A stretch of DNA of 64,000 bases from a virus. The stretch lies in the IMG/VR virus record IMGVR_UViG_3300018080_000100; one strand, written 5' to 3'. The notes below the pieces were generated by a model. That model worked only from the letters and a program-made list of their open reading frames with translations, made no database searches and was not told the origin of the DNA. Positions 1,937 to 20,282 of this stretch are shown piece after piece (positions within the stretch are counted from its first letter, which is position 1; the number at the start of each line of letters is the position of its first letter). Made by a program: the position numbers and the translations under genes.

Positions 1937-2508
1937 TCGCAGTAGCCCTTAGACTTGCCCCAAGCGGCGCAGGTCTTCGACATACTGTTGTTCGCATGAA
2001 ACCAGTCACGCGCCCAATCCCAGTCGTCGTTGACCAGCGTGGCAAAGTCATGCTCGTTGAGTTCGATGACCGTATCAGTGGTCAGCTCCAACATGCGGAT
2101 CACGCGGTCGTAGTCGGCCACATGGTTCGCCGGCGGCCACGCGCGGATGTCCACGCGGATAGCTTTGCCGTCGCGCAGCTTCTGCGCCTCGCCTTCGAGC
2201 TTCTCTGCGGTCTTGGCGCAGAAGCCGGCAAGCGCTTCGTCGCGCATGGTTATATGCTGCTCTCGGTTCTTCCGAACGATATCAAGCAGCTTGTCACGTT
2301 CCATCGTGCATTTGATGTCCAAGGTAAATCTCCGATACGTGTCGAAACGTGCGCGCGCCAGGCCTTGTGTGTTGCCTATCGACCCGCCCATCGTTTCATA
2401 TGCGTAGAATTCCAGCTTGTAGCGCGGCCCCCGAATATACATTTCGGCCGGGAGCCGCGCGCCTGGTATGCTGAATGCGCCGTAGCGATTAGGCGTTGAC
2501 CAGTTCAT
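1933..2508 (-). CDS. hypothetical protein
   Basis: 191-aa ORF whose stop overlaps the start of the downstream gene. Confidence 0.45.
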   Translation of the reverse strand: MNWSTPNRYGAFSIPGARLPAEMYIRGPRYKLEFYAYETMGGSIGNTQGLARARFDTYRRFTLDIKCTMERDKLLDIVRKNREQHITMRDEALAGFCAKTAEKLEGEAQKLRDGKAIRVDIRAWPPANHVADYDRVIRMLELTTDTVIELNEHDFATLVNDDWDWARDWFHANNSMSKTCAAWGKSKGYCE

Positions 2509-4594
2509 TGAACTCGTCTTCGGTCAGGATGGTGACATCCAGTTGCCGCGCCTTAGTCAGCTTGCTGCCGGCATCTGCGCCGGCCACGAGATAGTCGGTC
2601 TTGCCCGAGACACTGCTCGAAGCTTTGCCGCCAGCATCCTTGATGGCTTGTTTGATGCCATCGCGGGTGTAGCCGACGAGCTTGCCAGTCGCGCAGATGT
2701 TCTTGCCGTCCAGCGGACGTGGTCCGGCTGGCACTACCTCTGGCGGGGGATCGCCCATGCCCGTGTTGACGCCCCAGGTACGGAAGTCTTCCAGGAGCTG
2801 TCTGTTCCCGTCATGGGCCAGCCAGTCTTCAAGACTTGCAGCCGTCTCCTTACCTATCCCCTCCAGCTCGCTCAGACTATCTGCGCTCCACGAATTGCCC
2901 AACTCCACAAAAACGTCGACTGGCTTGCCGGCGCGCGCAACCACGGCCTTGCAAATCAGCTCGGAATTGGTCCGCCCGACGTGCTTGATGTTGAGCGACG
3001 CCATCAGGCGCCACGAGGGACGCGTAGCAGCCTCGTCTATGGCCGCCAGGAGCTTTTTCGACTTCCCAGGCGTCAAACCCGGAATGGCCCCAGAATCGGC
3101 GTCTACGGTGTCGTAGAGGCACCATAGATCGGCCAGGCTTGTGAGCAGCCCACCAACTTCGCCGTTGTAATCCTCCGCCATCATCGCCTGGACGGCCTTG
3201 GGACCGAGTCCGTCGATATCCAGGCGGCTGCGGTCGGCAGCTGCGAGGATTACGGCTTCTAGCTGGGCTGGGCAGCCTGCGGTGTTTGTGCAGGACACGA
3301 GGGGACCATCGCGCACGGTGTTGGCCTCGCAGACCGGGCACTTCTCGGGCGGCTTGAACTTCCGCGGCCGTCCGGTGCGCTTGCCCGTGTGTACCCGCAC
3401 CAGGTGGGGTATGATCTTCCCCGCCTTCTCCAGCGTCACAGTGTCCCCGATGCGGGGGTCCAACCGTTCGACCTCGTCGAAGTTGAACAGGGTGCTCTTC
3501 TGTACCGTAGTCTCAGCGATCTCGACGGGCTCGTAGTAGGCGACAGGCGTCAGCGTTCCTTGCTTACCGACCTGCGTCTCGAGCCGTACGATCTTGGTTT
3601 CAGCCTCATATCGCTCCCATTTGTAGGCCATGGCCCACGAAACGTGGCGCGATGAAACAGAGCCCATTGTTTCACGATCGCTGAAACAGTCCAGTTTCAG
3701 CACGATCCCGTCGACCGGAATATCAAGACCGTTGATCACGGCGACCATCTGCTCGATCTGCTTGCGCGCGACTGGATACGTCAGCGGGTTCATAGTCTCG
3801 CAGTTGCTCGGAATGCCCATCAGATGCAGCGCGTACATCGTCTCAACGAATGAGTCGTTGTAGTAGTCCGGATCGAACTGGCCGACGCCATGCGCTATGA
3901 AGTGCAGCTTGCGCTTCCAGCATTCCTTAGGGTCGTGCTGCCGCAATGCGCCCGACGCCGCGTTTCTGGAGTTCTTGAAGGGTTCCTCGCCGGCCTTCTC
4001 CTGCGCGTCCACCAGCGCGGCGAAGGCCGAGTTGGGGATATAGACCTCGCCGCGGACCTCCACGGTGCCGTCAACTTTGATCACATGATCATTTTTCGGC
4101 AGGTCGTCTCGGACGAGGCGTTCCAGCTTGCGCGGGATACCGCGGATCGACATGGCATTGTGGGTGATGTCATCACCCTTCTTGCCGTCGCCGCGGGTCA
4201 CAGCGCGCGTCAGTACACCGTCGACGTAGATCAGGCTGATGGCGCAGCCATCGACCTTCCAGTCGGCGCTATATACCGGGCCTTTCTTGAGCTTATGCGA
4301 CGCACGGACGTGGAACTTGTCCAACGCATCCACGTCAAAACCGTTGTCGATCGAGAGCATCGACACAGCGTGCTTGACGGATTTCAGCCCAGCGATGGGC
4401 TCGCCGCCGACACGTTGCGTGGGACTCTTCGGGTCAGCGAATTCCGGATTCTCGGCTTCCAGACGCTGCAGCTCCTTGAACTGCTTGTCGTAGAACGCAT
4501 CCGAGACGACCGATTCGCTGTATGTGTAGTACATACGGTCCCATTCTGCGATCGCGTCGCGGAGTTCTTCAATCTGTGTCCTTACGTCAGGCAT
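2489..4594 (-). CDS. ligA: NAD-dependent DNA ligase
   Basis: 701 aa; N-terminal Ia domain; adenylation motif KxDG (WKVDGCAISLIYVDG); OB fold; Cys4 zinc finger (CPVCEAN…C…C); HhH region; C-terminal BRCT-like domain. Matches the LigA family throughout. Confidence 0.9.
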   Translation of the reverse strand: MPDVRTQIEELRDAIAEWDRMYYTYSESVVSDAFYDKQFKELQRLEAENPEFADPKSPTQRVGGEPIAGLKSVKHAVSMLSIDNGFDVDALDKFHVRASHKLKKGPVYSADWKVDGCAISLIYVDGVLTRAVTRGDGKKGDDITHNAMSIRGIPRKLERLVRDDLPKNDHVIKVDGTVEVRGEVYIPNSAFAALVDAQEKAGEEPFKNSRNAASGALRQHDPKECWKRKLHFIAHGVGQFDPDYYNDSFVETMYALHLMGIPSNCETMNPLTYPVARKQIEQMVAVINGLDIPVDGIVLKLDCFSDRETMGSVSSRHVSWAMAYKWERYEAETKIVRLETQVGKQGTLTPVAYYEPVEIAETTVQKSTLFNFDEVERLDPRIGDTVTLEKAGKIIPHLVRVHTGKRTGRPRKFKPPEKCPVCEANTVRDGPLVSCTNTAGCPAQLEAVILAAADRSRLDIDGLGPKAVQAMMAEDYNGEVGGLLTSLADLWCLYDTVDADSGAIPGLTPGKSKKLLAAIDEAATRPSWRLMASLNIKHVGRTNSELICKAVVARAGKPVDVFVELGNSWSADSLSELEGIGKETAASLEDWLAHDGNRQLLEDFRTWGVNTGMGDPPPEVVPAGPRPLDGKNICATGKLVGYTRDGIKQAIKDAGGKASSSVSGKTDYLVAGADAGSKLTKARQLDVTILTEDEFNELVNA

Positions 4595-4925: not shown

Positions 4926-5164
4926 TTCTTCTTCTCCCGCTTGGGCTTCAACTTCGTCTCCTTGCTTTCTAAGCGCCGGGCAACATCGTAGTCGAGACAC
5001 TCGCGGTCGTACCGAGAGAGCTCTTCGATGTAACACCGTTCGCAGCGTACGAATGGCAGCCTAGCGCCACCAGTCGTAGGATACCAATTCGTGGTCACCT
5101 CGAGACATCTCGTGCATTTCTTTGTTGGCCGCCTTAGCGGCTTGGCTACGCTTGTAGTCTGCAT
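4922..5164 (-). CDS. small zinc-ribbon protein
   Basis: 80 aa with CxxC…CxxC (KKCTRC…VRCERCY) and a Lys-rich tail; it overlaps the neighbouring ORF, so the start is uncertain. Confidence 0.3.
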   Translation of the reverse strand: MQTTSVAKPLRRPTKKCTRCLEVTTNWYPTTGGARLPFVRCERCYIEELSRYDRECLDYDVARRLESKETKLKPKREKKK

Positions 5165-5375
5165 AAAGTGCCTCGATTAGTTGTTTGAACCGCCAACGCT
5201 GTGTGCCACACGCACACCGCCTAAGGATGTCGGGACGCCTCTGCATGATCCAGAGATCTGCAGCGTTTCTTTGTCTCGTGGACATGTATTGCGTCCAATA
5301 GTCTTCAGCAGCCTCTTGGCCGCGTGTGACCCGCATGTCGAGCGCGTTCTGTATCGACCACGGCAGGTATCTCAC
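5061..5375 (-). CDS. hypothetical protein
   Basis: 104-aa ORF; no motif. Confidence 0.3.
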   Translation of the reverse strand: MRYLPWSIQNALDMRVTRGQEAAEDYWTQYMSTRQRNAADLWIMQRRPDILRRCACGTQRWRFKQLIEALYADYKRSQAAKAANKEMHEMSRGDHELVSYDWWR

Positions 5376-5451
5376 GGCGGGGCGTGCTGCACTCGAATCC
5401 TGTTCAGATGGCGCTGTCTGTCCATAGCGGTATCCTCCATGATGAAGGTGA

Positions 5452-7269
5452 TTACAATACTGCGGGCGCTTCGGCGTCCACAGGTGCCTCGGCAGCTACT
5501 ACCAGAGGCGGACGACTGTCGTCTTCTTCGTTCTCAGCCGGACCGTGCAGGTTTTCGGCAAGCTCTAGGCCCTCCTCTAGCCGGTCAGCTTCTCTTAACT
5601 CTTGTTCGGTCATCCTGGCGTTCACGAACTCGGCGACGGTTGGCATCCGTACCGAGCAGTTGTACATGAACTGCCCAATACCCCAGCGGTTGCCCATCCA
5701 GTCGTGATAGCGCGCGTAGAACGCTTTGGTGTGCTTGTGCGCCTTGAACGACGGCGTTGAGTGCAACGCCTCGTGCACGAGCAAATGGGCGTAGCGCATC
5801 CACGCCGTAGGCCCTGTCTTCATGTCGCGCACGTGCTCGCGGTTGATGGCTATGTAGGTCTTGCCGTCCGTCCACGATGTCAACGGACCGTACCCAAGCA
5901 CGATACGCATGTCGTGGAGATTTTTACCAGGACCGCCTGGCCACGCACGCCACAGCTGATTGACGTTCTGCCGTAGGCATCCCAGGACCACAGATTCAAC
6001 ACGATTGAGCTGAGAGTCATCGATGATCTGCGACTTGGAATTCAGCGAGGCGACCAAATCGCCCCACGGTATGTACGTTAGCGCGTAGCGGTCGTACCCG
6101 CCGATTACGCGATTAACCAGCGCCACCAACGCTTCGCAGTTCTGCAGCCCGAAACGGGTCAGCGTGGTGTTGTCTATCACGCACGCCAGCTGATTGATGG
6201 TAATCGCCGCGACATTCGAGCGGTGCCTGTAACTGTAGTTGTCAGCGCCCCGCGGCGGGCTGGTAACTTGGCCACGGGCCACGTTGTGGACCTGCCGCAC
6301 AGTAAGATTCGCACGCTGCTCAAATCGCTTGAAGAGCCGAGCATTCTTGAACTGCTGGGCTTCCAGCTCGCCGTCTTTGGCCTGGTTACAGAGCCGTACA
6401 CGATCATCCTCGGTCAGCCTAACGGGCGCCGCGCGATTACCTGTCCTACGGCGCTGCGTTCCGGGCGTGGAACGCGTGCGCGTCTGCTCGGCGTTAGCCC
6501 GCTTGGTGATCTCCTTGAGCACCTTACGCCAGACAGGGCAGTCATCCATGATGTCGTTGCGCGCGAAGTTCACCTTGAGCGGCTTCTTCGTCACGACGTC
6601 ACCGCCTACACCGTACTTGTACCGGTAGTAGGAGATCACTTTGATGCCCTGGTTGTACACGCGCAGGTCTTGGTTCGCCCGATACCGAATATCGGCCTCC
6701 GGCGTCTCGACGTCCCACGGTACGCGGGCGCGATTGGCGACGAACTTGTCACCGTTCAGCGTGGCGTTCAGCTCAACGTACTTGGCGTTGCTCTTGATCT
6801 CTTCCTGCAGCTGCGACAACTGGGTGTGCGACAGCTGCTTGAACAGCTCTACTGTGACACTGCACCCGTCGCGGTGGTCCAGGCCCTCGGTAAGGTGGTA
6901 GTCCAGGCCGTCGCGCTCGATGTTGACGACCATCTCGAATTCGCCTGAGCGCCAGATGTTGTGGCCGAAAGCGAATAGCTGGCCACGGCCCATCCGGAAC
7001 GCTCCGAATGTCTTGTTCTCTCGTGCCTCATGCATCTTGCCGAAGACCTCGAAGAAGTCCTCGATGTCGCTTCGGGAGCGGAAACCCTTTCCGTTGTCCC
7101 GAATCGTCAGCATATTTCGCGTGAGTTCGATCTCGCATGTGGAGGCGCCTGCGTCGATGGCGTTCATGACGCCCTCGATCGTGGCTTTCCACAGGCTGCC
7201 GGCCTGACGTTTGATTATGTCAACCAGCAGTTGTTGGTCCATTTTGAAGCTACGTCGTTCTCTGCTCAT
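5452..7269 (-). CDS. GHKL-family ATPase fused to a C-terminal HExxH (zincin-like) domain
   Basis: 605 aa. N-terminus has the Bergerat-fold N-box (EGVMNAIDAGAS) and G1 box (IRDNGKGF). C-terminus carries LLVHEALHS (HExxH). The architecture is not a standard described fusion. Confidence 0.6.
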   Translation of the reverse strand: MSRERRSFKMDQQLLVDIIKRQAGSLWKATIEGVMNAIDAGASTCEIELTRNMLTIRDNGKGFRSRSDIEDFFEVFGKMHEARENKTFGAFRMGRGQLFAFGHNIWRSGEFEMVVNIERDGLDYHLTEGLDHRDGCSVTVELFKQLSHTQLSQLQEEIKSNAKYVELNATLNGDKFVANRARVPWDVETPEADIRYRANQDLRVYNQGIKVISYYRYKYGVGGDVVTKKPLKVNFARNDIMDDCPVWRKVLKEITKRANAEQTRTRSTPGTQRRRTGNRAAPVRLTEDDRVRLCNQAKDGELEAQQFKNARLFKRFEQRANLTVRQVHNVARGQVTSPPRGADNYSYRHRSNVAAITINQLACVIDNTTLTRFGLQNCEALVALVNRVIGGYDRYALTYIPWGDLVASLNSKSQIIDDSQLNRVESVVLGCLRQNVNQLWRAWPGGPGKNLHDMRIVLGYGPLTSWTDGKTYIAINREHVRDMKTGPTAWMRYAHLLVHEALHSTPSFKAHKHTKAFYARYHDWMGNRWGIGQFMYNCSVRMPTVAEFVNARMTEQELREADRLEEGLELAENLHGPAENEEDDSRPPLVVAAEAPVDAEAPAVL

Positions 7270-7792
7270 TCCTCTTCAGCGAAATGCGGCGAGGCGCCCT
7301 GTTCTCGGTGGCGTCTTCTTTGACCTCCGGCGGCTCCTCGTCGTGGGTATGGTAGCGGGGGTGGCGATACAACACGCGATTCCGAACGGTTTCCTCGATC
7401 TTGACGATGTTGTTCATCAGGATTGCAGGCCCGCTTTCGGACTTGCTGTTGTACAGCATGATTGGAACCGTCTGGTCCCCGTCGCTAAGAGATATGTACC
7501 CCTCATCGTAGTCGCCCCAAGCACGCCCGGTCAGCGGGTTGCCGTAGTAGATACGGAAGCGCATCCTATCGATGCGCAGCGCCAGGCGTATTTGGAAGAA
7601 ATCGATGATCGCCCTAGGCACGTGTGGGCCGTAGAGCTCAGGGTAGTACGTTGCAGCACGCAACTTAGCTCGAGAAATCGTAGATGGTAGCGTCGTCAGG
7701 GAGTCCTGGGTATCTTCCACAGAGGATCTTGAGCGCGTGTTTGTAGGTGTCGACGACATCTTCTCTGGCTTGTCTTGAAACCTCGTCCACAA
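7250..7792 (-). CDS. hypothetical protein (true start probably internal; 5' region overlaps the RNase H gene)
   Basis: 180-aa ORF; it overlaps 7665..7792 with the upstream ORF; no motif. Confidence 0.3.
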   Translation of the reverse strand: MWTRFQDKPEKMSSTPTNTRSRSSVEDTQDSLTTLPSTISRAKLRAATYYPELYGPHVPRAIIDFFQIRLALRIDRMRFRIYYGNPLTGRAWGDYDEGYISLSDGDQTVPIMLYNSKSESGPAILMNNIVKIEETVRNRVLYRHPRYHTHDEEPPEVKEDATENRAPRRISLKRNEQRTT

Positions 7793-8306
7793 GGATGTTC
7801 AGATTCACGCGGTCGCGTTCGACGTGGTGAAACGTCATGACGAAGCCGCGCTTGCGGTACTCGTCGAAAGCGGACCACAGTTCCTGGTGTGAACGTCGCG
7901 ACTCGGGCCGGTTGCCGGCCGTTGCCACGATCTTGCTGTCAGTCACTATATGGATCTGCATCTGGCGGTTGACCGCCTGCAGTTCTCTTCGCCGGTGTCG
8001 TCCCGGGCCGTCTCGCCCGGTATACCAGCTCAGCGCATGCAGATACGGAAACAGCTCGCCTAGCGTCACGGTGCCAGTATTCATGGCGCCGTAGAACAGC
8101 TTGCGCGCGCCGCTGTATCTGTCGATCAGTACGGCTGCCCAGCCTGCACCCATCTTCCAGCCGAGCCCGGACCCATCACCGATGATGATGGTGTCCCACT
8201 CAGTTATCTTCAGGTGGGCGCGGAGGTCGGCCAAACTGGCCAGTCCGGGAAGCAGGTGCTTCTTGCGCTTCTTTGCCGCTGTGCGCGTTTTCGTCTCTGT
8301 TGTCAC
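7665..8306 (-). CDS. RNase H-like ribonuclease
   Basis: 213 aa; IIIGDGSGLGW…; …TFHHVERDRVNLNILVDEVSRQA matches the RNase H catalytic Asp/Glu and C-terminal H…D layout. Confidence 0.5.
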   Translation of the reverse strand: MTTETKTRTAAKKRKKHLLPGLASLADLRAHLKITEWDTIIIGDGSGLGWKMGAGWAAVLIDRYSGARKLFYGAMNTGTVTLGELFPYLHALSWYTGRDGPGRHRRRELQAVNRQMQIHIVTDSKIVATAGNRPESRRSHQELWSAFDEYRKRGFVMTFHHVERDRVNLNILVDEVSRQAREDVVDTYKHALKILCGRYPGLPDDATIYDFSS

Positions 8307-8586
8307 TTTGTCTCGCCCTGACCGCCTCTTCGGCAGCCCTAAAGAACTGGGAGAGTCCGCGGCCTAGCACACCCGGCAGCTCAGCTGCTGTAGCGCCCAG
8401 GCGGCAGACTATAGATGGATCTTGCAAATCTCCGAAGGCCAAATGCGCCGGCACACCCGTAAGCTCTGGGGCGTACAGCAGCGCGACGGCAGCGCCGTCC
8501 AGCTCCGGAAACTCCTCGATCAGCTGTCCGAACATTTCGTGCAGACGTGCATTGATCTCTTCGTCGAATCGCTTACGTTCCGCCAT
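8200..8586 (-). CDS. hypothetical protein
   Basis: 128-aa ORF; no motif. Confidence 0.35.
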   Translation of the reverse strand: MAERKRFDEEINARLHEMFGQLIEEFPELDGAAVALLYAPELTGVPAHLAFGDLQDPSIVCRLGATAAELPGVLGRGLSQFFRAAEEAVRARQSDNRDENAHSGKEAQEAPASRTGQFGRPPRPPEDN

Positions 8587-9052
8587 CCGGCAATCGCTCC
8601 TTAATGAACCGCAGGATCTCAGCCCCTACCGCATCCCAGTCGAAGTATGGCCGACGGCCGTCCTCTGGGAAGATCAGCGGAGCGCCAGCTGCGGCGTCGT
8701 CGATGTAGTAGTGCGCGTATGCCTTGTTCGAAGTCGTCCAAGGTTGCGGGTTCTCATTCAGCAGATCGAACTCGACGCCGACCGATTCGCAGTAATCGAC
8801 AGCCTCGGTCAGCACACTGCCTTCTACCTGATTGTCGCTCCGCATGGTCCAGAGGATGAGGGTCGCCCCTGCTTCCTTGAACTTCTTCAACCACTCCAGC
8901 GCCTGCGGCACGGGTGGGCCAACATCGGGGAATCGATGCTCTACGATCGTGCCGTCGAAGTCGACGGCGATATACACCTTACGTCCTGGCATTTTGTTCC
9001 TGTGATCAAGTTTCGTCCGGGTCGAATATCTCTCGATTCTCGTCCAGGACAT
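8573..9052 (-). CDS. HAD-superfamily phosphatase/nucleotidase-like protein
   Basis: 159 aa; N-terminal motif I DFDGT (IAVDFDGTIV); small cap-less HAD fold typical of phage 5'-nucleotidases. Confidence 0.55.
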   Translation of the reverse strand: MSWTRIERYSTRTKLDHRNKMPGRKVYIAVDFDGTIVEHRFPDVGPPVPQALEWLKKFKEAGATLILWTMRSDNQVEGSVLTEAVDYCESVGVEFDLLNENPQPWTTSNKAYAHYYIDDAAAGAPLIFPEDGRRPYFDWDAVGAEILRFIKERLPDGGT

Positions 9053-9838: not shown

Positions 9839-9982
9839 CTATAGATAGCAAACCACCATACAAATTACCCAGACCACCAGCAGAGCGATCCAGAACTTCT
9901 TCGTATGTGACCAGACATGACCACAGTATCGTTCGAAGGACTCGAACTTTTCCAGGTCATCACTCTTAGGACCATCCTCCAT
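9839..9982 (-). CDS. small hydrophobic-tail protein
   Basis: Internal ATG (MEDGPK…) with GGAGAG 9 nt upstream; C-terminal TM segment; divergent from the terminase gene. Confidence 0.25.
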   Translation of the reverse strand: MEDGPKSDDLEKFESFERYCGHVWSHTKKFWIALLVVWVICMVVCYL

Positions 9983-11876
9983 GTCTTCTGACTCTCCAGT
10001 CTTCGACGAACCGATTGCGCTAGAAGGACTCCTGGCGCAAGCGAAAACAGTGTTCAATCCCGATGAAAACTCTCGAATAACGTCCACCGACCAGGTGGCC
10101 GCCTACAATAAGCTGTTGCGCACAGGCCAGGTAGATACCCTGGCGCACGCGCTACCGCTTATGTTGAACCTCAAGGGTAATCCGTACACCCTGAACGACC
10201 ACTTTCCTTTCGAGGAAATCTTCCGGTTCCACATGCCGTCGGCGCTGATCTACAAGACCGGCCGGCAGGTGTCCAAATCTACATCTCTGGCAGCGCACGG
10301 CGTCGTTACGTCGATCTCGCTGCCGAACATCACCACGCTGTACGTCATGCCGCTCTTCGAGCAGGTGCGCCGTTTCAGCACGATGTTTGTGCAACCATTC
10401 ATCGACCAATCGCCGGTCAAGAAGCTCTGGACGGGCACGGACACCGTGAACAGCGTGCTCCACCGCAGCTTCCACAACCATTCGAAGATGCTCTTCTCGT
10501 TCGCGTTCCTGAACGCAGACCGTATCCGCGGTATTTCCGCGGACAAGATGGCGGTCGACGAAGTCCAGGACATGAACCACGAGCACATCCCCATTATACG
10601 CGAAACGATGTCGGCAAGCCCGTGGGCCTTCCGACAATTTACCGGAACGCCCAAAACGCTCGACAATACGCTGGAAGCGCTCTGGGGTGAGTCGTCCCAA
10701 GCAGAGTGGTTTGTGCCGTGCATGCACTGCACGACCAACGGCGCGCCGACCTGGAACATCCCCACAATGGAGTTCCACCTGGAGAAGATGATCGGGCCCT
10801 ACCGCCCAGACATCTCCGAGGCGCATCCGGCAACGATCTGCCACAAGTGCGGCAAAGCGATCAGCCCACGCCTCGGCCGGTGGGTGCACAGATACCCTGA
10901 TCGGATTTGGGATCAGGCGGGCTATCACGTGCCGCAGGTCATAATGCCGCTGCACTATGCGAAACCTGACAAGTGGGCAGAACTACTTGCCAAGATGGCC
11001 GGTAAGGGCAACACCCCGCTGAACGTGTTCTTCAACGAAGTGCTGGGCGAATCGTACGATACGGCAGCCAAGCTCGTGACGCTGACCGAGATCGACGCGG
11101 TGTCAAACCTTGGCGAGAACACCATCAACGCAGCGCGCGCCCGCCGGGGTATGTACAGCATGGTTGTGCTGGCAGTCGACTGGGGTGGCGGCGGTGAGAA
11201 GGGCCTGAGCTTCACGACGGCTGCCGTGTTGGGTATGCGCCGAGACGGCACCATCGAGGTCATCTACGGCAAGCGCCTGCTGACGCCACACGACCACCTG
11301 CGCGAGGCTCGAGAGATCAAGCAGCTCTGGGAGATCTTCAAGCCCACGATACTGGCGCACGACTACACAGGCGCCGGTGCGCTCCGCGAGACGTTCCTGA
11401 TCCAGGCTGGTGTGCCCACGCGGGCCACGATGCCTTGCCAGTACGTCCGCTCGGCGTCGCAGCAGCCGTGCTACCACGTGGCGCCTACGCTGCAGCACCC
11501 ACGCTCGCACTACCGCGTTGACAAGAGCCGCTCGCTGTTGCTCACCTGCGCGATGATCAAATGCCGACGGCTCAAGTTCTTCAACAAGGACCACAATAGC
11601 AAGGAAGACCCAGGACTCATCTGGGACTTCTTGGCCCTGGTGGAAGACAAGGTCACCACGATGGCTGCGGGCGAGATCTACCGGATCACGAAGCAGCCGG
11701 GCTTCACCGACGACTTCGCGCAAGCTGTGAACCTGGGATGCGTCGCAATGTGGTATCGCACCCGCAGATGGCCAAAGCTTGACGAGATCGCCGAGTACGC
11801 CATCACGGACGACCAGCTACGCGCGTCGGTGCCGCAGCACGACTCCGACTGGGACGACGAGCTACTGCCAGGCTAG
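9981..11876 (+). CDS. terL: terminase large subunit (ATPase + nuclease)
   Basis: 631 aa; Walker-A-like YKTGRQVSKST; Walker B MAVDEVQDM; C-terminal RNase-H-like nuclease segment (VLAVDWGGGG…); inserted Cys/His cluster (CMHC…CHKC). One of the few plus-strand genes. Confidence 0.55.
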   Translation: MSSDSPVFDEPIALEGLLAQAKTVFNPDENSRITSTDQVAAYNKLLRTGQVDTLAHALPLMLNLKGNPYTLNDHFPFEEIFRFHMPSALIYKTGRQVSKSTSLAAHGVVTSISLPNITTLYVMPLFEQVRRFSTMFVQPFIDQSPVKKLWTGTDTVNSVLHRSFHNHSKMLFSFAFLNADRIRGISADKMAVDEVQDMNHEHIPIIRETMSASPWAFRQFTGTPKTLDNTLEALWGESSQAEWFVPCMHCTTNGAPTWNIPTMEFHLEKMIGPYRPDISEAHPATICHKCGKAISPRLGRWVHRYPDRIWDQAGYHVPQVIMPLHYAKPDKWAELLAKMAGKGNTPLNVFFNEVLGESYDTAAKLVTLTEIDAVSNLGENTINAARARRGMYSMVVLAVDWGGGGEKGLSFTTAAVLGMRRDGTIEVIYGKRLLTPHDHLREAREIKQLWEIFKPTILAHDYTGAGALRETFLIQAGVPTRATMPCQYVRSASQQPCYHVAPTLQHPRSHYRVDKSRSLLLTCAMIKCRRLKFFNKDHNSKEDPGLIWDFLALVEDKVTTMAAGEIYRITKQPGFTDDFAQAVNLGCVAMWYRTRRWPKLDEIAEYAITDDQLRASVPQHDSDWDDELLPG

Positions 11877-12670: not shown

Positions 12671-12744
12671 GGTGGCTGGAGGGATTTGAACCCTGCTCCT
12701 TCAGCGCCACAAGCTGACGTGCTGCCTGGTACACCACAGCCACA
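12671..12744 (-). tRNA. tRNA-His (anticodon GTG), extra 5' G
   Basis: Hand-folded cloverleaf: acceptor GTGGCTG/CAGCCAC, T-loop TTCAAAT, anticodon loop TTGTGGC. Confidence 0.7.
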
Positions 12745-12745
12745 G

Positions 12746-12816
12746 TGGCCCCACTAGGAATCGAACCTAGACCTGACGGTTAAGAGCCGCCTGCTCGACC
12801 TTCGAGCTACGGAGCC
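12746..12816 (-). tRNA. tRNA-Lys (CTT)
   Basis: Cloverleaf with T-arm CTAGG-TTCGATT-CCTAG and anticodon loop CTCTTAA. Confidence 0.65.
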
Positions 12817-12838
12817 AATTTTGTTCATATGATCAAGA

Positions 12839-12909
12839 TCCGCCACACGGAGTTGAACCGTGTCCTCCGGCTTACCATGCCGGGCTCGTACCAGTCCGAG
12901 CTCTGGCGG
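12839..12909 (-). tRNA. tRNA-Thr (GGT)
   Basis: T-arm CACGG-TTCAACT-CCGTG; anticodon arm CCGGC-ATGGTAA-GCCGG. Confidence 0.6.
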
Positions 12910-12923
12910 AAAACAGCCCTAAG

Positions 12924-12994
12924 ATCCGAGGGCAGGAATCGAACCCGCACCTGCTGAGTACGAAACAGCTGTTCTGCCGTTAAACTACCCCGGA
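12924..12994 (-). tRNA. tRNA-Thr (CGT)
   Basis: Acceptor TCCGGGG/CCTCGGA; T-loop TTCGATT; anticodon loop TTCGTAC. Confidence 0.55.
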
Positions 12995-13122
12995 TCATCA
13001 GCGGAAGAGTATCCAAAACATGCCCAACACCACGATCCCAACAATGACATCGCGCGCTACGTCAGGCCAGGTGGTGGCCTCCGCAAGCAACATTTCCATG
13101 ACAAACCTCCTTTGTTAGTCAG

Positions 13123-13193
13123 TGGTCCCACTAGGAATCGAACCTAGACCCGCTGCTTAAAAGGCAGCAGCTCGACCTTCGAGCTATAGGACC
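13123..13193 (-). tRNA. tRNA-Lys (TTT)
   Basis: Paralog of the CTT tRNA; anticodon arm GCTGC-CTTTTAA-GCAGC. Confidence 0.65.
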
Positions 13194-13198
13194 GTAAG

Positions 13199-13276
13199 TA
13201 GCGGTGGACGGATTCGAACCGCATCTTCCGCAGGGGCTACCCACGGCGCTCTACCTGACGACTACCGACCCCGCAG
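13199..13276 (-). tRNA. tRNA-like element (isotype unresolved, possibly degenerate)
   Basis: Good T-loop GGTTCGAATCC, but acceptor and anticodon pairing could not be completed by hand. Confidence 0.3.
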
Positions 13277-13437
13277 CCCGTGGATGTGACGTCACCATCC
13301 GGGACCCGATCGCGCAGACGAATGTTCACGCCCTCGACGTGTACTTTGTCTCAGACGCTTCATTTGAGCTACACCGCCATAAGACGGCCGCTAGGACCAC
13401 ATCTTTCCTGAATGCGTTATTTCAGCACGCAGCCAAG

Positions 13438-13509
13438 TCGCTCCGCTCGGGGTCGAACCGAGACCACTGGATCATGACTCCAGCACACTGCCAATTATGT
13501 TACGGAGCA
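13438..13509 (-). tRNA. tRNA-Met (CAT)
   Basis: Anticodon arm CTGGA-GTCATGA-TCCAG; T-arm CTCGG-TTCGACC-CCGAG. Confidence 0.6.
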
Positions 13510-13510
13510 G

Positions 13511-13580
13511 TCGGATGCCTGGGTTTCGAACCCAGCTCGGGGGCCTTATAAGAGTCCCCTAGGTCCCAAGCCTGCATCCA
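13511..13580 (-). tRNA. tRNA-like element with non-canonical anticodon arm
   Basis: Acceptor TGGATGC/GCATCCG and T-arm CTGGG-TTCGAAA-CCCAG are fine, but the anticodon region is a GGGG/CCCC stem with a 12-nt loop. Confidence 0.35.
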
Positions 13581-14129
13581 TCATAGCTTCACAGCCCAAG
13601 TCGTGTCCTCGAATACGTCGACGCGGTCCGCGAATTCCCTATCTACTGCTTTCATCACGCCACGGAAGCGCTTGTCGTAGTCATGCCCGGCGATGAACCG
13701 CGTGCAATGCGGCAGCCACAGCTTGATTTGCCGTGACACAGCTGCGTCCGTATGCACAGCGTCGATGTACACGCCGTCGACCTTACCGATGAACGGTTCA
13801 ACGTCCATGTCGAAGGCGTTTATCAGCATGACGTTACGCTGATTGTACGTGTTCTTGTGGGCTTGCGCATGCGCCCAGCGCATGTCGCGCGGATGCATCT
13901 CCGCACCGACACAGTCGCCAAGCGTTTTGTCGATTGTTAGTTCCCACGGATCGACGCCGAGCACGTAGTCGAAATACTTGGCGTGGACTAGTGTGCTTTC
14001 GCCCTGCCATACGCCCAATTCGACCAATGTTCCACCGCCGTACTTACGGCCAAACGCGTGCAGGCCTTCCGTTAGGCCGGGCGCGGCGCGCATGCACAAT
14101 CTAGGATCGTCGAGCTTGTTCTTTGTCAT
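13581..14129 (-). CDS. class I SAM-dependent methyltransferase-like protein
   Basis: 182 aa; motif-I-like LVELGVWQGEST and acidic motif II; found within the sugar-modification cluster. Confidence 0.45.
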   Translation of the reverse strand: MTKNKLDDPRLCMRAAPGLTEGLHAFGRKYGGGTLVELGVWQGESTLVHAKYFDYVLGVDPWELTIDKTLGDCVGAEMHPRDMRWAHAQAHKNTYNQRNVMLINAFDMDVEPFIGKVDGVYIDAVHTDAAVSRQIKLWLPHCTRFIAGHDYDKRFRGVMKAVDREFADRVDVFEDTTWAVKL

Positions 14130-14141
14130 TTGTTCCTCCAG

Positions 14142-14215
14142 TAGGCGATGCAGGACTTGAACCTGCCGCCTCCACCGTGTCGAGGTGGCGCTCTGGCCTG
14201 ATGAGCTAATCGCCT
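14142..14215 (-). tRNA. tRNA (anticodon GAC, Val) - tentative
   Basis: Acceptor AGGCGAT/ATCGCCT; D-arm GCTC…GAGC; T-loop TTCAAGT; anticodon loop TCGACAC has an unusual C33. Confidence 0.45.
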
Positions 14216-14318
14216 GCGGATCCGGTAGGGGCTTGCCCGGGGCGGGGCCCCTAGGCCGGACTTCGAACCCGTATTATCGCTCCTCCATTCCCCTAGTTGT
14301 TAAGGAGTCCCGGATCAG
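14216..14318 (-). other. tRNA-like remnant (T-arm-like GGGTTCGAAGTCC without a closable acceptor stem)
   Basis: A T-loop motif is present but no cloverleaf could be closed; possible pseudo-tRNA or long-arm tRNA that was not resolved. Confidence 0.2.
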
Positions 14319-14392
14319 TCTGGGTAGCAAGATTTGAACTTGCGTCCTCGCGGTCCCGAACCGCGCGCTCTGCCAGGCTGAGCTACACCCAG
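14319..14392 (-). tRNA. tRNA-Pro (CGG)
   Basis: Anticodon arm CGCGG-TTCGGGA-CCGCG; T-arm GCAAG-TTCAAAT-CTTGC. Confidence 0.65.
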
Positions 14393-14393
14393 A

Positions 14394-14984
14394 TTACAAT
14401 TCTTGTATGCGTTCCTGCTTGAGCCACTTGCGTAGCAGCGCTTGCTCGGAATGCGCGTCGTGTCCTTTGAAGTTCGCATTGTACCCGAAGCAGGCGATCT
14501 TTATCGTCCAGTACGTGTACGCCGGATTGTCGACCAACCACTTCAAGATCCAAACGCCCGCGCTCGGATTCACGTTCTGCTCTACACCGAAGTTGCGTTT
14601 GTATCGCCGTACCCACGCGCAATGGCGCCTGTCAACGAATTCTACGCGCGATTCTTTGAGCGCCGGATAGCGTTTGAAGAACGGACAAAGGTCCATCTTG
14701 GTTAACTGGCTAGGCCGGAGCTTTTCGCGCTGTGACGGCATAATCCACAGATGCGGCTGCGCTTTCACGACTTCTGGGACGAGCCTAAGGCGCCCCATCG
14801 CTATCAACTCTCCATGGCCTTTCGCTGCACCACGTAGCGCCAGGTGTGTCGTACGTTTGCCGATCAGCCCGGTCTCGTAGAACGGTGTCGTCTGGAAGCG
14901 CGCAACAGCGTCCGCCGCATCTATAGCTGCGGACATGTCTTCGGACGGCTTGCTGTTGCCGACTACGACGATGGTTTTTGACAT
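14394..14984 (-). CDS. GT42/Maf-like nonulosonic-acid (sialyl) transferase, paralog 1
   Basis: 196 aa; N-terminal IVVVGNSKPS (compare CstII VIIAGNGPS); C-terminal KGHDAHSEQALLRKWL (compare CstII IGHSKNTDIKALEFL, catalytic His); sits beside the CMP-NulO synthetase. Confidence 0.5.
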   Translation of the reverse strand: MSKTIVVVGNSKPSEDMSAAIDAADAVARFQTTPFYETGLIGKRTTHLALRGAAKGHGELIAMGRLRLVPEVVKAQPHLWIMPSQREKLRPSQLTKMDLCPFFKRYPALKESRVEFVDRRHCAWVRRYKRNFGVEQNVNPSAGVWILKWLVDNPAYTYWTIKIACFGYNANFKGHDAHSEQALLRKWLKQERIQEL

Positions 14985-15628
14985 AATCCGGCTCCAACGT
15001 GCTCCGCAAGCTCCCAGTCAGCCTCGGTGTCAATGTCGACCAGTTCGGTGCCGCGCACTTCTTGGAACCATGGATGGAAACCGATGCGCCGTCCGTGCTC
15101 ACGCATGAAAGTGCGCCGAAGAATCCAGAAGCCATCCGACTCAATGAAGATCGGCGCTTGCGTTTGCGTCGGCGGACATGTACGTGGGTCGTGGTTGATT
15201 GACTGGTAGTGGCAGTTCCACAGACGTCCGCGGACGGCTTGCATGCTGGCGGCCGAATCAAAACCGCTAGCGATGACAGCATTCATGGCGGTGCGGATAC
15301 TGTCCACGCGAATGAACGGCGACGTCGCGTTCTTGATGCAGCACCACGTCGCTTTCTCTGGAACGGCCGCCAGCATATCGCGAAACATTCTGTTGCTGTC
15401 CTGTATCTCCATGACGGTCCGCTCGGGATACAGCACGACGTCGGACGGGACGTGATCCATGATGGCGGGTTCGCCGTAGACGCCGATCTCGTCGATAAGA
15501 CCCTCTTCACGCAGCTGGCGTAGCGGTTCCAGCGTCCATTCGTACAGCGGGCGTCCGCACAGTTCGCGGAAGTTCTTGCCGGGCACACGCTCGCTGCGCA
15601 TCTTCAGGGGTGTGACAGCTATTCGCAT
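14963..15628 (-). CDS. acylneuraminate (nonulosonic acid) cytidylyltransferase, CMP-NeuAc synthetase family
   Basis: 221 aa; IAVTPLKMRSERVPGKNFRELCGRPLYEWT matches the CTP_transf_3 P-loop (IIPARGGSKGIPxKN…L.GKPL); the …TSPF… motif is also conserved. Confidence 0.65.
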   Translation of the reverse strand: MRIAVTPLKMRSERVPGKNFRELCGRPLYEWTLEPLRQLREEGLIDEIGVYGEPAIMDHVPSDVVLYPERTVMEIQDSNRMFRDMLAAVPEKATWCCIKNATSPFIRVDSIRTAMNAVIASGFDSAASMQAVRGRLWNCHYQSINHDPRTCPPTQTQAPIFIESDGFWILRRTFMREHGRRIGFHPWFQEVRGTELVDIDTEADWELAEHVGAGLCQKPSS

Positions 15629-16254
15629 GGTATGTCTCCCATGTTACCGATCGGGTGCAACCGGCCGCCACGCACCCAACGTTTCAGCAGCTCACGCTCC
15701 AGGCCTTCTGGATGATGACCGCGAAAACCGCCCGTGAAGCCGGTAACCTGTATGGTATACTCTGCAAACTCCGTTTGCGATAGCAGCCATTGTAGCACCC
15801 ATAAGCCGCCCGTTGGCTCCACATGGCCTTTGAAGCGCCGTCGCCTCCAAAAGTATGCTTTCAGCGCCGTACGTGCTGACATATCCACGAAGCGTATCGG
15901 CAGCTCGCTCATCTGCGGATAACGTGCGAAGAAGGGCGCAACCTCGACGTGATGCAGATTGCACCACGACAACTTACGCGGCGCATGCATGCCCCAGCCG
16001 TCGCTGCGCATGACCCACAGCTCTGGTCTGGCAGCTAGTGCCTCCTGCGATAGGGGCAGCTTGCCTGTACTCAGATCTTTGCCAGTCCCTGTCGAGGCGC
16101 CGCGGAATGCCAACGCCGTTGTCTTAGTGCCGGTCAGCCCTAACGGGTAGTAGAAAGCCATCTGGAAGCGTACGACTTCGTCAGCGTCGTCGATGATCTC
16201 CGACAGGTCGACAGTCGGCTCAGCGTTTCCGACGACTACCATAGTCTTGGCCAT
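15619..16254 (-). CDS. GT42/Maf-like nonulosonic-acid transferase, paralog 2
   Basis: Start refined to ATG (MAKTMVVVGN) with GGAGG 5 nt upstream; C-terminal GHHPEGLERELLKRW; ~30% identical to paralog 1. Confidence 0.5.
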   Translation of the reverse strand: MAKTMVVVGNAEPTVDLSEIIDDADEVVRFQMAFYYPLGLTGTKTTALAFRGASTGTGKDLSTGKLPLSQEALAARPELWVMRSDGWGMHAPRKLSWCNLHHVEVAPFFARYPQMSELPIRFVDMSARTALKAYFWRRRRFKGHVEPTGGLWVLQWLLSQTEFAEYTIQVTGFTGGFRGHHPEGLERELLKRWVRGGRLHPIGNMGDIPCE

Positions 16255-16271
16255 GACGCCTCCGTGCGAGT

Positions 16272-16345
16272 GCGCGCAGTCAGGATTCGAACCTGCATTT
16301 CTCCGTTGGCTACACTTAGGTTCCGGCAGCGCTACCTTTCCCGTT
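16272..16345 (-). tRNA. tRNA-like element (unresolved)
   Basis: T-loop CAGGTTCGAATCCTG present; acceptor pairing not found by hand. Confidence 0.25.
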
Positions 16346-16387
16346 CTCGCCCGCGGTTGACTGTCCAATCAGCCTATACGCGCGAAG

Positions 16388-16461
16388 TCTAAGTGGCAGG
16401 ATTCGAACCTGCGGCCTTCTGGCCCCCAGCCAGACGCTCTACCAGACTGAGCTACACTCAG
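16388..16461 (-). tRNA. tRNA-Pro (GGG)
   Basis: Acceptor CTGAGTG/CACTTAG; anticodon arm TCTGG-CTGGGGG-CCAGA. Confidence 0.6.
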
Positions 16462-17078: not shown

Positions 17079-17085
17079 AGGTGAA

Positions 17086-17157
17086 GTACCCTCGGTAGGA
17101 TTCGAACCCACGTGGAACGGTGTAGAAAACCGTGGCCTATCCTCTAGGCTACGAGGG
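17086..17157 (-). tRNA. tRNA-Arg (TCT)
   Basis: Anticodon arm ACGGT-TTTCTAC-ACCGT; T-loop TTCGAAT. Confidence 0.65.
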
Positions 17158-17167
17158 CATTATATCA

Positions 17168-17239
17168 GTCACCCCACCAGGAGTCGAACCTGGGCCTGCG
17201 GCTTCGGAGGCCGCCGTCTTGTCCTCTCGACTATGGGGT
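17168..17239 (-). tRNA. tRNA-Arg (CCG)
   Basis: Anticodon arm GCGGC-CTCCGAA-GCCGC; T-arm CCAGG-TTCGACT-CCTGG. Confidence 0.6.
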
Positions 17240-17367
17240 GTGAACGCGACGGCCCGGACCTCTATTTCAGTACGGCCTGGGATCATTGCGGGTGTCTAAG
17301 GTTACGCCGTCGAGTGCGTGACGAAACGACGACTCCCACTCCAGTACGTCACGATACTCCGCCGCGA

Positions 17368-17440
17368 GCAGCCCCGGCAGGATTCGAACCTGCATTAACC
17401 TGGCTTAGGACACCAGTGCCTTTCCGTTAGGCGGCGGGAC
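17368..17440 (-). tRNA. tRNA-Arg (CCT)
   Basis: Acceptor AGTCCCG/CGGGGCT; anticodon arm CTGGT-GTCCTAA-GCCAG. Confidence 0.6.
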
Positions 17441-17448
17441 TGAGGCCG

Positions 17449-20280: not shown

Positions 20281-20282
20281 AG

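Follow-up and report, generated by a model that had tools for sequence, protein, structure and literature searches.

A giant-phage protein joining a GHKL-type clamp ATPase to a small zincin-like domain, and its family on mobile genetic elements

The gene and its ATPase half

The window analysed here comprises 64,000 nucleotides of IMG/VR virus record IMGVR_UViG_3300018080_000100, which belongs to a giant phage. At 5452..7269 on the minus strand it carries a gene whose product joins an Hsp90/MutL-type "clamp" ATPase to a tiny zinc-protease-like domain. According to the ORF list and its translation, this is a complete ORF of 605 aa with an ATG start, and its limits coincide exactly with those given in an earlier note made on this DNA. 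The annotated start is favoured over an alternative one at Met10 because residues upstream of the latter are conserved among homologues, F8 being kept in at least 90% of them. A scan for promoters and terminators around the gene gave no signals exceeding shuffled expectation.

The AF2 model of the 605 aa protein has a mean pLDDT of 86 and shows, from N- to C-terminus, the GHKL ATPase, a transducer, a basic linker, a helical middle domain, a mini-zincin and an acidic tail. Full-length homologues number 703 at E<=1e-3. Conservation was counted in 121 close homologues, and a distant set comprised 57 bacterial, plasmid and archaeal homologues. The nucleotide coordinates of the motifs were confirmed via translation. 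The features outside the mini-zincin are as follows, with counts given out of the 121 close homologues:

6781..7269, minus strand: GHKL (Bergerat-fold) ATP-binding domain, aa 1-163, including an N-terminal strand (aa 2-6)
7150..7176, minus strand: N-box E32-GVMN36-AID39-A (EGVMNAIDA); E32 in 119, N36 and D39 in 121
7084..7098, minus strand: G1 box D58-N-G60-K-G62 (DNGKG), with D58 as the adenine contact; D58, G60 and G62 in 121
6979..7005, minus strand: G2 box or ATP-lid, G89-AFRMGRGQ97; R92, G94, G96 and Q97 in 121
6484..6780, minus strand: transducer or middle-domain-like alpha-beta module, aa 164-262
6556..6570, minus strand: NFARN loop, including R237; N234, A236 and R237 in 121
6418..6483, minus strand: Arg/Thr-rich basic disordered linker, aa 263-284 (TRTRSTPGTQRRRTGNRAAPVR); pLDDT <50 for aa 265-280
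5914..6417, minus strand: family-specific, mostly helical middle domain, aa 285-452, confidently modelled
5452..5544, minus strand: acidic Ala/Pro-rich disordered tail and stop codon, not conserved; pLDDT <50 for aa 591-605

An N-terminal ATPase with an N-box and a G1-box had been proposed in the earlier note, and our results bear this out. Pfam HATPase_c_3 matches the protein with an E-value of 6.1e-7, scoring 30 bits against a curated cut-off of 25, and the motif residues are invariant or nearly so among the close homologues. The N-box aligns to the E-x-x-x-N-x-x-D-A pattern of MutL, MLH1 and PMS2, and the G1 box could be aligned too; E32 is the putative catalytic base and N36 the putative Mg2+ ligand. 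In NCBIfam only sub-threshold matches to the GHKL motifs were obtained (for MutL TIGR00585, 17.7 bits against a cut-off of 180), and the sole match among the PHROGs, phrog_6203, covers the N-terminal motifs and has no function assigned.

The predicted structure contains both the Bergerat fold and the transducer domain that characterise GHKL proteins, and its structural neighbours are Hsp90/TRAP1, the topoisomerase II ATPase, MORC and MutL, at sequence identities of 10-19%. In this regard, the earlier note had drawn analogies to MORC, PARIS and Gabija-like sensors. MORC is indeed a structural neighbour, but PARIS AriA and Gabija GajA belong to the ABC/OLD-type ATPases and not to the GHKL proteins, and the analogies are loose overall.

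The NFARN loop lies behind the ATPase core at a position that, compared by motif, may be equivalent to that of the Arg loop of the Hsp90 middle domain. After the N-L-S-R-E loop of Hsp90, R237 is a putative gamma-phosphate sensor, which may be the counterpart of Hsp90 R380 on the basis of motif resemblance. NFARN persists in haloarchaeal homologues at 23% identity, as do the ATPase motifs in archaeal homologues at that same level, and the plasmid versions of the loop read NVSRS or NVSRT.

Beyond the transducer, the linker insertion is confined to the roughly 11 closest relatives. Within the middle domain, R290 and a TLxRFG motif are conserved; this domain has no meaningful Pfam match even at E<=10, and a profile search against the PDB returned chance-level matches only. 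In place of the tail, plasmid homologues have another extension, some 200 aa long.

The C-terminal zincin-like domain

Four features, again with counts out of 121, make up the C-terminal domain:

5545..5913, minus strand: minimal zincin-like metallopeptidase domain, aa 453-575 (three strands, the active-site helix and three helices)
5866..5874, minus strand: W466-T467-D468, on the strand preceding the active-site helix, a putative substrate-binding edge strand; W in 121, T in 120, D in 119
5731..5775, minus strand: metal-binding motif H499-E500-A-L-H503-x7-H511-x-H513; H499 in 120, E500 in 118, H503 in 120, H511 in 119, H513 in 120
5701..5721, minus strand: F517-Y-x-x-Y/F-H522-D523, a helix after the metal site; F517 in 118, H522 in 116

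The HEALH motif that the earlier note had recognised near the C-terminus (aa 499-503, nt 5761-5775) does not fall in a region predicted to be disordered. It lies at the end of a confidently modelled helix (aa 487-501; pLDDT of the region about 88-96), within a predicted domain of mixed beta-sheet and helices that has the topology of zincins. H-E-x-x-H is intact in 118 of the 121 close homologues and in 50 of the 57 distant ones, a conservation that is well past the chance occurrence of HExxH. H513 is likely the third metal ligand, because it is the only downstream His retained in the divergent plasmid versions from Pseudomonas and Acinetobacter. The flanking elements recur as well: archaeal and plasmid versions have (W/Y/F)TDG at the WTD strand, and the helix after the metal site reads EFYERFHD in plasmids and archaea.

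When compared with Pfam at E<=10, the zincin region gave nothing meaningful, with no match to SprT-like, WLM or other peptidase families, and the zincin profile found only chance-level matches among PDB sequences. The absence of a sequence match to any peptidase family would fit a domain whose metal site is structural or which is a dead pseudo-peptidase, function residing in the ATPase only. The same can be said of three of the 121 homologues (P0020, P0017 and P0096), which have lost HExxH; because they keep the ATPase motifs alone, the ATPase can matter without the peptidase. However, the catalytic Glu is present in 118 of 121 sequences, together with three or four His and the WTD strand. Kept from phages to haloarchaea, this pattern is the one expected of an active site under purifying selection, and we consider a dead or purely structural site extremely unlikely.

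Together, Pfam, the models and homologue conservation agree with the architecture put forward in the earlier note, an N-terminal GHKL ATPase plus a C-terminal zincin-like HExxH domain. Its remark that the combination is not a standard one also stands: the C-terminal part has no Pfam, NCBIfam or PADLOC assignment and no PHROG function, and a search of the full-text literature for a GHKL plus zincin domain combination found nothing relevant. The family is uncharacterised so far, and no earlier description of the GHKL-zincin fusion was found.

Family distribution and genomic contexts

A search with the zincin profile yielded 1,111 representative clusters at 50% identity. In the best 150 of these, nearly all proteins are 530-690 aa long and have the zincin domain at a constant position; among them, the GHKL-zincin fusion is fixed. 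Its carriers are phages (jumbo and mega-phages), conjugative plasmids, ICEs, archaeal (haloarchaeal) plasmids and chromosomes, the plasmid carriers including A. baumannii, P. aeruginosa, the P. syringae group, Xanthomonas and Aeromonas. Examples of plasmid homologues are WP_011282508 of P. savastanoi 1448A and WP_000204893 of A. baumannii. The phage framing of the earlier note must be revised in this respect: the family is not phage-specific but occurs equally on plasmids, ICEs and archaeal plasmids, and also on chromosomes. All annotated copies examined are named "ATP-binding protein", "hypothetical protein" or similar. Megablast of positions 1-20000 of the window against phage genomes gave no match, and hence no annotated close relative is at hand.

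This distribution bears on the possibility that the protein is an analogue of T4 rIIA, in which GHKL and a lineage-specific C-terminus would shield the phage or plasmid from prophage abortive-infection or exclusion systems. The top matches in a viral structure library are rIIA proteins (Foldseek E 6e-13 to 1e-9). However, plasmids and archaea carry many members of the family, outside known rII biology, no rIIA PHROG was matched and no rIIB-like partner was seen. In addition, the hhalign alignment covers 72 columns in the GHKL motifs only, with a probability of 0.2%; this value and the differing C-terminal domains led us to reject orthology with rIIA, and we hold an analogous role to be improbable.

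In the phage, the gene belongs to a DNA replication/repair operon with RNase H-like, NAD ligase and HAD/PNK-like phosphatase genes, and not to a toxin cassette. Two of these neighbours are given as context:

7665..8306, minus strand: RNase H-like protein, 213 aa, a semi-conserved upstream neighbour (partnership not proven)
2489..4594, minus strand: NAD-dependent DNA ligase with BRCT, downstream in the same operon; Pfam DNA_ligase_aden 2.3e-60, OB and BRCT

The RNase H-like gene is syntenic in 12 phage loci and two planctomycete contigs, and in a PDB profile search 35 of the 36 matches of its product were to RNase HI at the DGS...E motif, all of them weak (E 0.02-0.6). Synteny of the NAD ligase gene extends to related phages and to a Rhodovibrio locus. 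Phage synteny within the replication/repair operon spans relatives at 42-60% identity. The arrangement of RNase H-like gene, small ORFs and NAD ligase gene is limited to the window's own phage clade; the RNase H-like ORF alone is seen again outside it, in four phage-like contigs that are more distant. The earlier note had also suggested looking for partner genes among the neighbours. An all-against-all BLAST of the ORFs around 62 genomic/plasmid loci and 28 viral loci revealed no universally conserved partner, which suggests that the protein works alone.

These neighbours argue against an Hsp90-like chaperone-protease, in which GHKL would act as a folding or holding clamp and the zincin would mature virion, replisome or T4SS proteins of the element, with no involvement of DNA. 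The phage neighbours are DNA ligase and RNase H-like genes rather than structural genes, and many of the other contexts are methyltransferase, ParB and helicase clusters. Moreover, Pfam HSP90 is not matched at E<=0.01, the C-terminal dimerisation elements of Hsp90 were not found in the sequence, and the helical domain and zincin stand in place of the Hsp90 C-domain. We regard this explanation as distinctly unlikely. A MutL-like role in DNA processing would instead make the zincin fold a metal-dependent nuclease, as in YbeY, that carries out ATP-gated nicking or end-processing with RNase H and ligase; we judge such a role very improbable. As to the MutL/MLH family itself, only the N-box/G1 region (aa 26-68) aligns, and neither the MutL transducer (DNA_mis_repair) nor, in Pfam, MutL_C was found.

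Outside phages, plasmid copies lie between the genes for VirB11 and the coupling protein, or beside those for topoisomerase III/IA, SSB and primase. Other copies are found amid orphan DNA methyltransferases, ParB/PAPS-reductase, DUF262 and LPD polyvalent proteins. In haloarchaea an SF1 helicase gene adjoins, and an ArdC-like gene lies about 1.8 kb away. An M48 peptidase gene next to an Acinetobacter homologue was considered as a split version of the fusion and rejected; because the Acinetobacter protein carries zincin motifs itself, the adjacency is not counted as evidence.

Some chromosomal copies stand directly behind NurA-HerA genes or a type I restriction-like SNF2 protein/helicase, and some plasmid copies are close to toxin-antitoxin and zeta-toxin genes. 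Such associations would fit a defence or toxin module, acting in host or mobile-element immunity or superinfection exclusion, whose GHKL part senses invading DNA and whose protease is the effector; MORC-type GHKL proteins, likewise, are part of restriction-like systems (PMC2292703). On the other hand, a search of the PADLOC defence models at E<=1 matched 0 families, no immunity or antitoxin gene was seen as a cognate partner, the phage copies keep their synteny in the replication/repair operon, and plasmid copies sit inside transfer regions. The probability of a defence or toxin module appears slim.

Proposed mechanism and comparison with known systems

What this analysis established, namely the identity of the domains, the conservation of their motifs, the distribution of the family and its genomic contexts, allows us to propose a stand-alone, four-part enzyme of mobile genetic elements, in which a GHKL clamp cycle would position a target, likely a DNA-bound protein, for cleavage by the zincin. 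We put this forward tentatively, as a reading that is quite possible though short of probable. In this model, ATP would be bound and hydrolysed by aa 1-262 through E32/N36, D58, the G2 lid and the Hsp90-type R237. Following other GHKL proteins, ATP binding would probably bring about dimerisation via the N-terminal strand and thereby form a clamp, tied to the C-terminal domain by the flexible basic linker and the family-specific helical domain. The zincin (aa 453-575) would hold a metal on H499, H503 and H513 and, with E500 as general base, hydrolyse the bound polypeptide. The ATP-driven clamp would capture or position its target for this cleavage, most probably a protein bound to the DNA of the element. 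The scheme would be that of ArdC and Spartan, a DNA- or substrate-engaging module plus a SprT-like protease, here powered by GHKL. Its setting would be phage DNA replication and repair and plasmid transfer and establishment, possibly with removal of host DNA-bound or defence proteins.

The heterogeneity of the contexts, a HExxH-x9-H spacing unlike that of SprT/Wss1 and the few members that kept the ATPase motifs but lost HExxH count against the clamp-and-cleavage model. The roles suggested in the earlier note (toxin, exclusion factor or anti-defence effector) are candidates; for an anti-defence or establishment role it is association alone that makes it plausible, and the chromosomal copies adjoining NurA-HerA or a type I restriction-like helicase could equally point to a defence role. 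A bolder proposal, which we consider unlikely, is that the family represents the first energy-dependent protease on a GHKL dimerising clamp, used by mobile elements to cleave host proteins on incoming or replicating DNA. Candidate targets would be restriction or defence nucleases, silencers and covalent DNA-protein adducts. If true, the family would be an ATP-powered functional equivalent of ArdC/Spartan and would form a new class of anti-defence or establishment factors.

The family is large (about 1,100 clusters at 50% identity) and is present on clinically and agriculturally important plasmids, and an establishment or counter-defence role, if true, would matter for the host range of plasmids and for how resistance genes spread. 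Because plasmid homologues have culturable hosts, the question is directly testable by ArdC-style knockouts and conjugation.

With regard to the ATPase, Hsp90 (HtpG/TRAP1/GRP94), MutL, MORC and type II topoisomerase have in common with the present family a two-domain module bearing all Bergerat motifs. The Arg-bearing N-x-(A/S)-R loop resembles the catalytic loop of Hsp90, and in having a disordered linker ahead of a metal-dependent C-terminal domain the protein is reminiscent of MutL. However, it reaches no Pfam or NCBIfam model specific to any one of these families. The hallmarks of MORC/paraMORC proteins (an S5 domain with a conserved Lys, a coiled-coil insertion, R-M-like operons) were not found, nor was a CW domain, and the Toprim domain of type II topoisomerases is absent from the protein. 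rIIA, presented in parts of the literature as a poorly understood counter-defence factor, resembles it, along with rIIA-like proteins, in that a phage-encoded GHKL ATPase stands at the N-terminus and a long C-terminal region that varies between lineages comes after it; T4 rIIA, however, has neither HExxH nor a zincin domain, and the present family has no rIIB partner.

With regard to the protease, ArdC combines an ssDNA-binding domain with a Spartan-like metalloprotease and helps plasmids overcome restriction (PMC7213743). This anti-restriction protein of plasmid R388 differs from the present family in having ArdC-N and no ATPase, and the two show no sequence similarity; no ArdC-N ssDNA-binding domain precedes the metalloprotease in our protein. 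The third metal ligand is a Glu in ArdC, a gluzincin, whereas it is likely a His here. Compared with SprT/Spartan, Wss1 and the minigluzincins (selecase, proabylysin, projannalysin), the present family has a WTD strand and an FY..FHD helix of its own and matches none of the corresponding Pfam peptidase models. The SprT/Wss1 spacing is HExxH-x5-H, in contrast to HExxH-x9-H here, which sets the family apart from SprT, and SprT/Wss1-type proteases are fused to a Zn-binding or ubiquitin-related module instead of a GHKL ATPase.

FtsH and Lon likewise unite ATPase and protease in a single polypeptide, and FtsH also uses a HExxH zincin. To our knowledge, all energy-dependent proteases described so far are built on AAA+ rings. 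With a putative GHKL dimerising clamp as the ATPase of the present family, coupling would need another mechanism than that of FtsH or Lon, and if its two halves are coupled, the protein would constitute a mechanistically new ATP-dependent protease, with a GHKL clamp in place of an AAA+ unfoldase.

The gene and its two halves

The protein analyzed here, GHKL-zincin, carries a GHKL ATPase at its N-terminus and a HExxH zincin-like domain at its C-terminus. Its gene lies within a long minus-strand block, divergent from a gpA-type large terminase gene (9981..11876), and the coordinates of all its parts were checked by translation:

5452..7269, minus strand: GHKL-zincin ORF, ATG start, 605 codons
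5761-5775, minus strand: HEALH motif, aa 499-503, read from the translation

The start of the ORF and the stop of the upstream ORF overlap by 20 nt, and no promoter- or terminator-like signals above shuffled expectation surround the gene. Since homologues conserve the residues preceding the alternative Met10 (F8 in at least 90%), the annotated start is correct.

Pfam HATPase_c_3 matches aa 25-97 (E 6.1e-7, 30 bits) above its curated cut-off of 25, in agreement with the GHKL motifs proposed in the earlier note. Conservation was counted in an alignment of 39 sequences and then in one of 121. The N-box is retained almost throughout (E32 119/121; N36 and D39 121/121), and the G1 (D58, G60, G62) and G2 (R92, G94, G96, Q97) residues, together with the loop N234-F-A236-R237-N238, are invariant or nearly so in both alignments. 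The second domain of the family has no invariant Lys, the invariant Arg of N-F-A-R-N being found instead; this loop is near-universal among 57 full-length genomic, plasmid and archaeal homologues, and plasmid homologues carry N-V-S-R-S/T in its place. We take this Arg to recall R380 in the catalytic loop of Hsp90 (N-L-S-R-E), and not the lysine of MutL, GyrB and MORC.

Structural neighbours of GHKL-zincin, with their scores

TRAP1, 18.2
GRP94, 16.1
T6 topoisomerase II ATPase, 15.6
MORC3, 15.5
MutL, 15.4
MORC2, 15.2
SMCHD1, 14.9

As these alignments span 208-301 residues, aa 1-262 of the model comprise a Bergerat fold and a transducer, the two domains of a classical GHKL module. Alignment and model give good support to a GHKL ATPase that looks active and carries a putative Arg sensor of the Hsp90 type.

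The AlphaFold2 model, built with the family alignment as input (mean pLDDT 86), is disordered only at the Arg/Thr-rich linker (aa 265-280) and the acidic tail. The C-terminus has a zincin fold (aa 453-575), modelled as three strands, the HExxH helix, a loop with H511 and H513, and three more helices. W466-T467-D468 are invariant or nearly so in both alignments, and the metal motif is highly conserved (H499 120/121, E500 118/121, H503 120/121, H511 119/121, H513 120/121), as are F517 (118/121) and H522 (116/121) beyond it. Of the downstream His residues, only H513 persists in the divergent plasmid versions from Pseudomonas and Acinetobacter (HEVAHQGDSLACGHDEAFY, HEYAHLLDDEEGHNFEFY), which makes it the likely third metal ligand, with the spacing HExxH-x9-H. 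Only 3 of 121 homologues have lost HExxH, and all three retain the ATPase motifs; they speak for the alternative of a dead peptidase, the conservation in the other 118 against it. A minimal, active-looking zincin with His-Glu-His-His is well supported by the predicted fold and the conserved residues. The domain matches nothing in Pfam, even at E<=10, or among PDB sequences, and the confidently modelled middle domain (aa 285-452) found no sequence match in PDB profile and Pfam searches.

A fixed fusion on mobile elements

Among 5.8 billion proteins searched, 703 match GHKL-zincin at E<=1e-3; nearly all of the matches listed are 530-680 aa long and cover ~86-99% of the query, with identity down to 31%. 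A zincin-only profile retrieved 1,111 proteins at E<=1e-3 (906 at E<=1e-10) from 1.84 billion cluster representatives. Nearly all of the best 150 of these 1,111 measure 530-690 aa, with the domain at ~430-560, and the shorter proteins among them look like fragments. Given this uniformity of size and domain position, the sequences indicate that GHKL and zincin are permanently fused, and not by one genome's accident. HExxH lies at the same place in 50 of the 57 full-length homologues. The architecture that the earlier note had proposed, GHKL motifs with HEALH near the C-terminus, is thereby confirmed and fixed across the family.

The family is not phage-specific. IMG/VR holds 29 viral contigs with GHKL-zincin, the largest of 479 kb, and homologue-bearing contigs reach 213-233 kb. 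Among species-representative genomes, homologues occur in Mesorhizobium, Variovorax, Sphingomonas and Rhodovibrio, on a Herbaspirillum plasmid, and in MAGs of planctomycetes, Nitrospirota and CPR/DPANN; the haloarchaeal genomes among them (Natrinema, Natronorubrum, Haloterrigena, Natribaculum) have many copies each, often plasmid-borne. In PLSDB, 204 plasmids match (95 over >=80% of the query), led by Acinetobacter (89), Pseudomonas (50) and Xanthomonas (22), and 91 of the 204 are typed conjugative. The tblastn alignment of the Acinetobacter homologues is confined to the first 250 aa; they nonetheless carry WT...HEYAH...H..EFYERFHD. The annotated copies examined all carry names such as 'ATP-binding protein' or 'hypothetical protein'. 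GHKL-zincin is a large, coherent and uncharacterised mobile-element family.

Genomic neighbourhoods

In the window and its phage clade, GHKL-zincin is 42-60% identical, and small ORFs are followed by an RNase H-like ORF, a 180-aa ORF, GHKL-zincin, 2-3 small ORFs and an NAD-dependent DNA ligase, with a HAD/PNK-phosphatase-like gene close by and the terminase divergent.

7665..8306, minus strand: RNase H-like ORF, 213 aa, DGSG...E...TDS...D, upstream of GHKL-zincin
2489..4594, minus strand: NAD-dependent DNA ligase with BRCT domain, same operon as GHKL-zincin
8573..9052, minus strand: HAD/PNK-phosphatase-like protein (phrog_1238/phrog_415), same operon

The product of 7665..8306 may be a divergent RNase H, on weak but consistent evidence: 35 of 36 PDB profile matches are RNase HI, aligned at DGS...E (E 0.02-0.6), and Pfam and PHROG gave no match. 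Its synteny with GHKL-zincin extends over 12 phage loci and 2 planctomycete contigs. The ligase and the phosphatase-like protein together resemble a module that heals and seals ends.

Elsewhere in the window, 12671..43988 contains 39 tRNA genes, every one of them on the minus strand, with ORFs in between. Essentially all amino acids are represented (5 Leu, 5 Arg, 3 Ser, 3 Thr, 3 Pro and others, with 2 CAT-anticodon tRNAs of Met/Ile type), an unusually complete complement typical of jumbo or mega-phages. An 845-aa protein (29126..31663, minus strand) combines a Major Vault Protein shoulder domain (E 7e-23) with Vault_3 repeats and matches no PHROG; such a vault/SPFH-like protein is odd in a phage genome. 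An SPFH/Band-7 protein is encoded separately, at 50761..51699 (minus strand). Auxiliary genes are:

33008..34084, minus strand: NodZ-like fucosyltransferase
40985..42856, minus strand: trypsin-like peptidase, 623 aa
54315..55466, minus strand: DUF3150 protein
57074..58780, minus strand: AAA ATPase, 568 aa

On plasmids, the P. savastanoi 1448A homologue sits between virB11 and the coupling protein, with TrbM, type IA topoisomerase and SSB just downstream, and a P. aeruginosa homologue directly follows topoisomerase III, with a primase and an MTase-SNF2 polyvalent protein in the vicinity. Other plasmids place it among orphan DNA methyltransferases, ParB/PAPS-reductase, DUF262, DndB, DinG and LPD1/LPD7 proteins. 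Pseudomonas and Burkholderia plasmid versions are ~800 aa long (L060 11998..14388; L061 11989..14421; L067 8004..10427). Two aligned Pseudomonas proteins share an extra ~200-aa C-terminal tail with the conserved end PGETxWxLERNAAxAGFxRVEDYLKWR, absent from phage versions, and this tail could serve in T4SS recognition or in binding a partner. On A. baumannii plasmid pPM194122_1 (locus L068), an M48-family metallopeptidase gene (5099..5839) precedes the homologue by 160 bp in the same orientation, and a zeta-toxin gene is near.

Haloarchaeal homologues have an ArdC-like gene (ArdC-N plus HEYAH) ~1.8 kb upstream at 17-19 loci, and an SF1 helicase (752 aa) immediately upstream at 8. The module of ArdC-like gene, helicase and GHKL-zincin recurs in loci L034-L059 (e.g. 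L044 5506..6468, L046 5620..7878), and Natrinema hispanicum DSM 18328 has up to ~8 of them; this repetition suggests that related plasmids or integrated elements form a family.

Two chromosomal copies stand in defence-island-like settings. In Mesorhizobium sp. SP-1A (L009 4668..7883), NurA nuclease and HerA-like ATPase lie directly upstream, co-oriented, and the three genes may form a conflict module; in a Nitrospirota MAG, a type I R-like SNF2 protein lies beside the homologue. Such settings would suit a defence or toxin module, the rival to be set beside the lack of any match to the PADLOC defence models. The partner gene looked for among the neighbours did not emerge: no gene is universal across the viral, plasmid and genomic loci compared, and GHKL-zincin therefore most likely acts alone.

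Proposed mechanism and comparison with known systems

GHKL-zincin would dimerise through its N-terminus in an ATP-dependent manner, as is, to our knowledge, common to all characterised GHKL proteins, and the clamp cycle would be coupled to proteolysis. The substrates would be DNA-associated proteins, as suggested by the neighbouring genes for DNA processing and transfer, by the basic linker and by analogy with Spartan/Wss1 and ArdC. In this regard, ArdC combines an ssDNA-binding domain with a Spartan-like protease and lets R388 overcome recipient restriction (PMC7213743). That a GHKL clamp drives zincin cleavage of DNA-associated proteins for the mobile element's benefit is a reading we offer tentatively, as credible but short of probable; of its two halves, the biochemical one by itself is a good deal likelier than the biological one. 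As a candidate for a new ATP-coupled protease and for a plasmid or phage establishment factor, GHKL-zincin lends itself to testing, with tractable homologues on Pseudomonas and Acinetobacter plasmids.

There are three further rivals. One is an Hsp90-like chaperone-protease serving the element's own proteins; no Hsp90 family match was obtained. Another is a MutL/YbeY-like nuclease; GHKL-zincin is not a member of MutL, as the alignment is limited to N-box/G1, and TIGR00585 scores 17.7 against a cut-off of 180. An rIIA-like anti-exclusion role would fit the rIIA proteins being the best matches in a viral structure library, whereas the hhalign probability is 0.2% and T4 rIIA has no HExxH. Membership of MORC was likewise rejected (Arg in place of Lys, no R-M partner), as was that of SprT/Wss1 or ArdC, the likeness being one of fold only.

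The PARIS and Gabija analogies of the earlier note proved inexact; its view that the combination had not been described holds within our full-text literature search, which covered few subscription-journal papers and found nothing, so that absence is not proof. A jumbo-phage review (Aravind group) describes rIIA as 'GHKL plus highly variable C-terminal domain' and mentions SprT-like and ArdC-like peptidases separately, as stand-alone; the fusion is absent from this review and from the polyvalent-protein and MORC papers. Taken together, GHKL-zincin shows all testable features of the GHKL superfamily, to which it belongs, and is a fixed, previously undescribed combination of two known folds.
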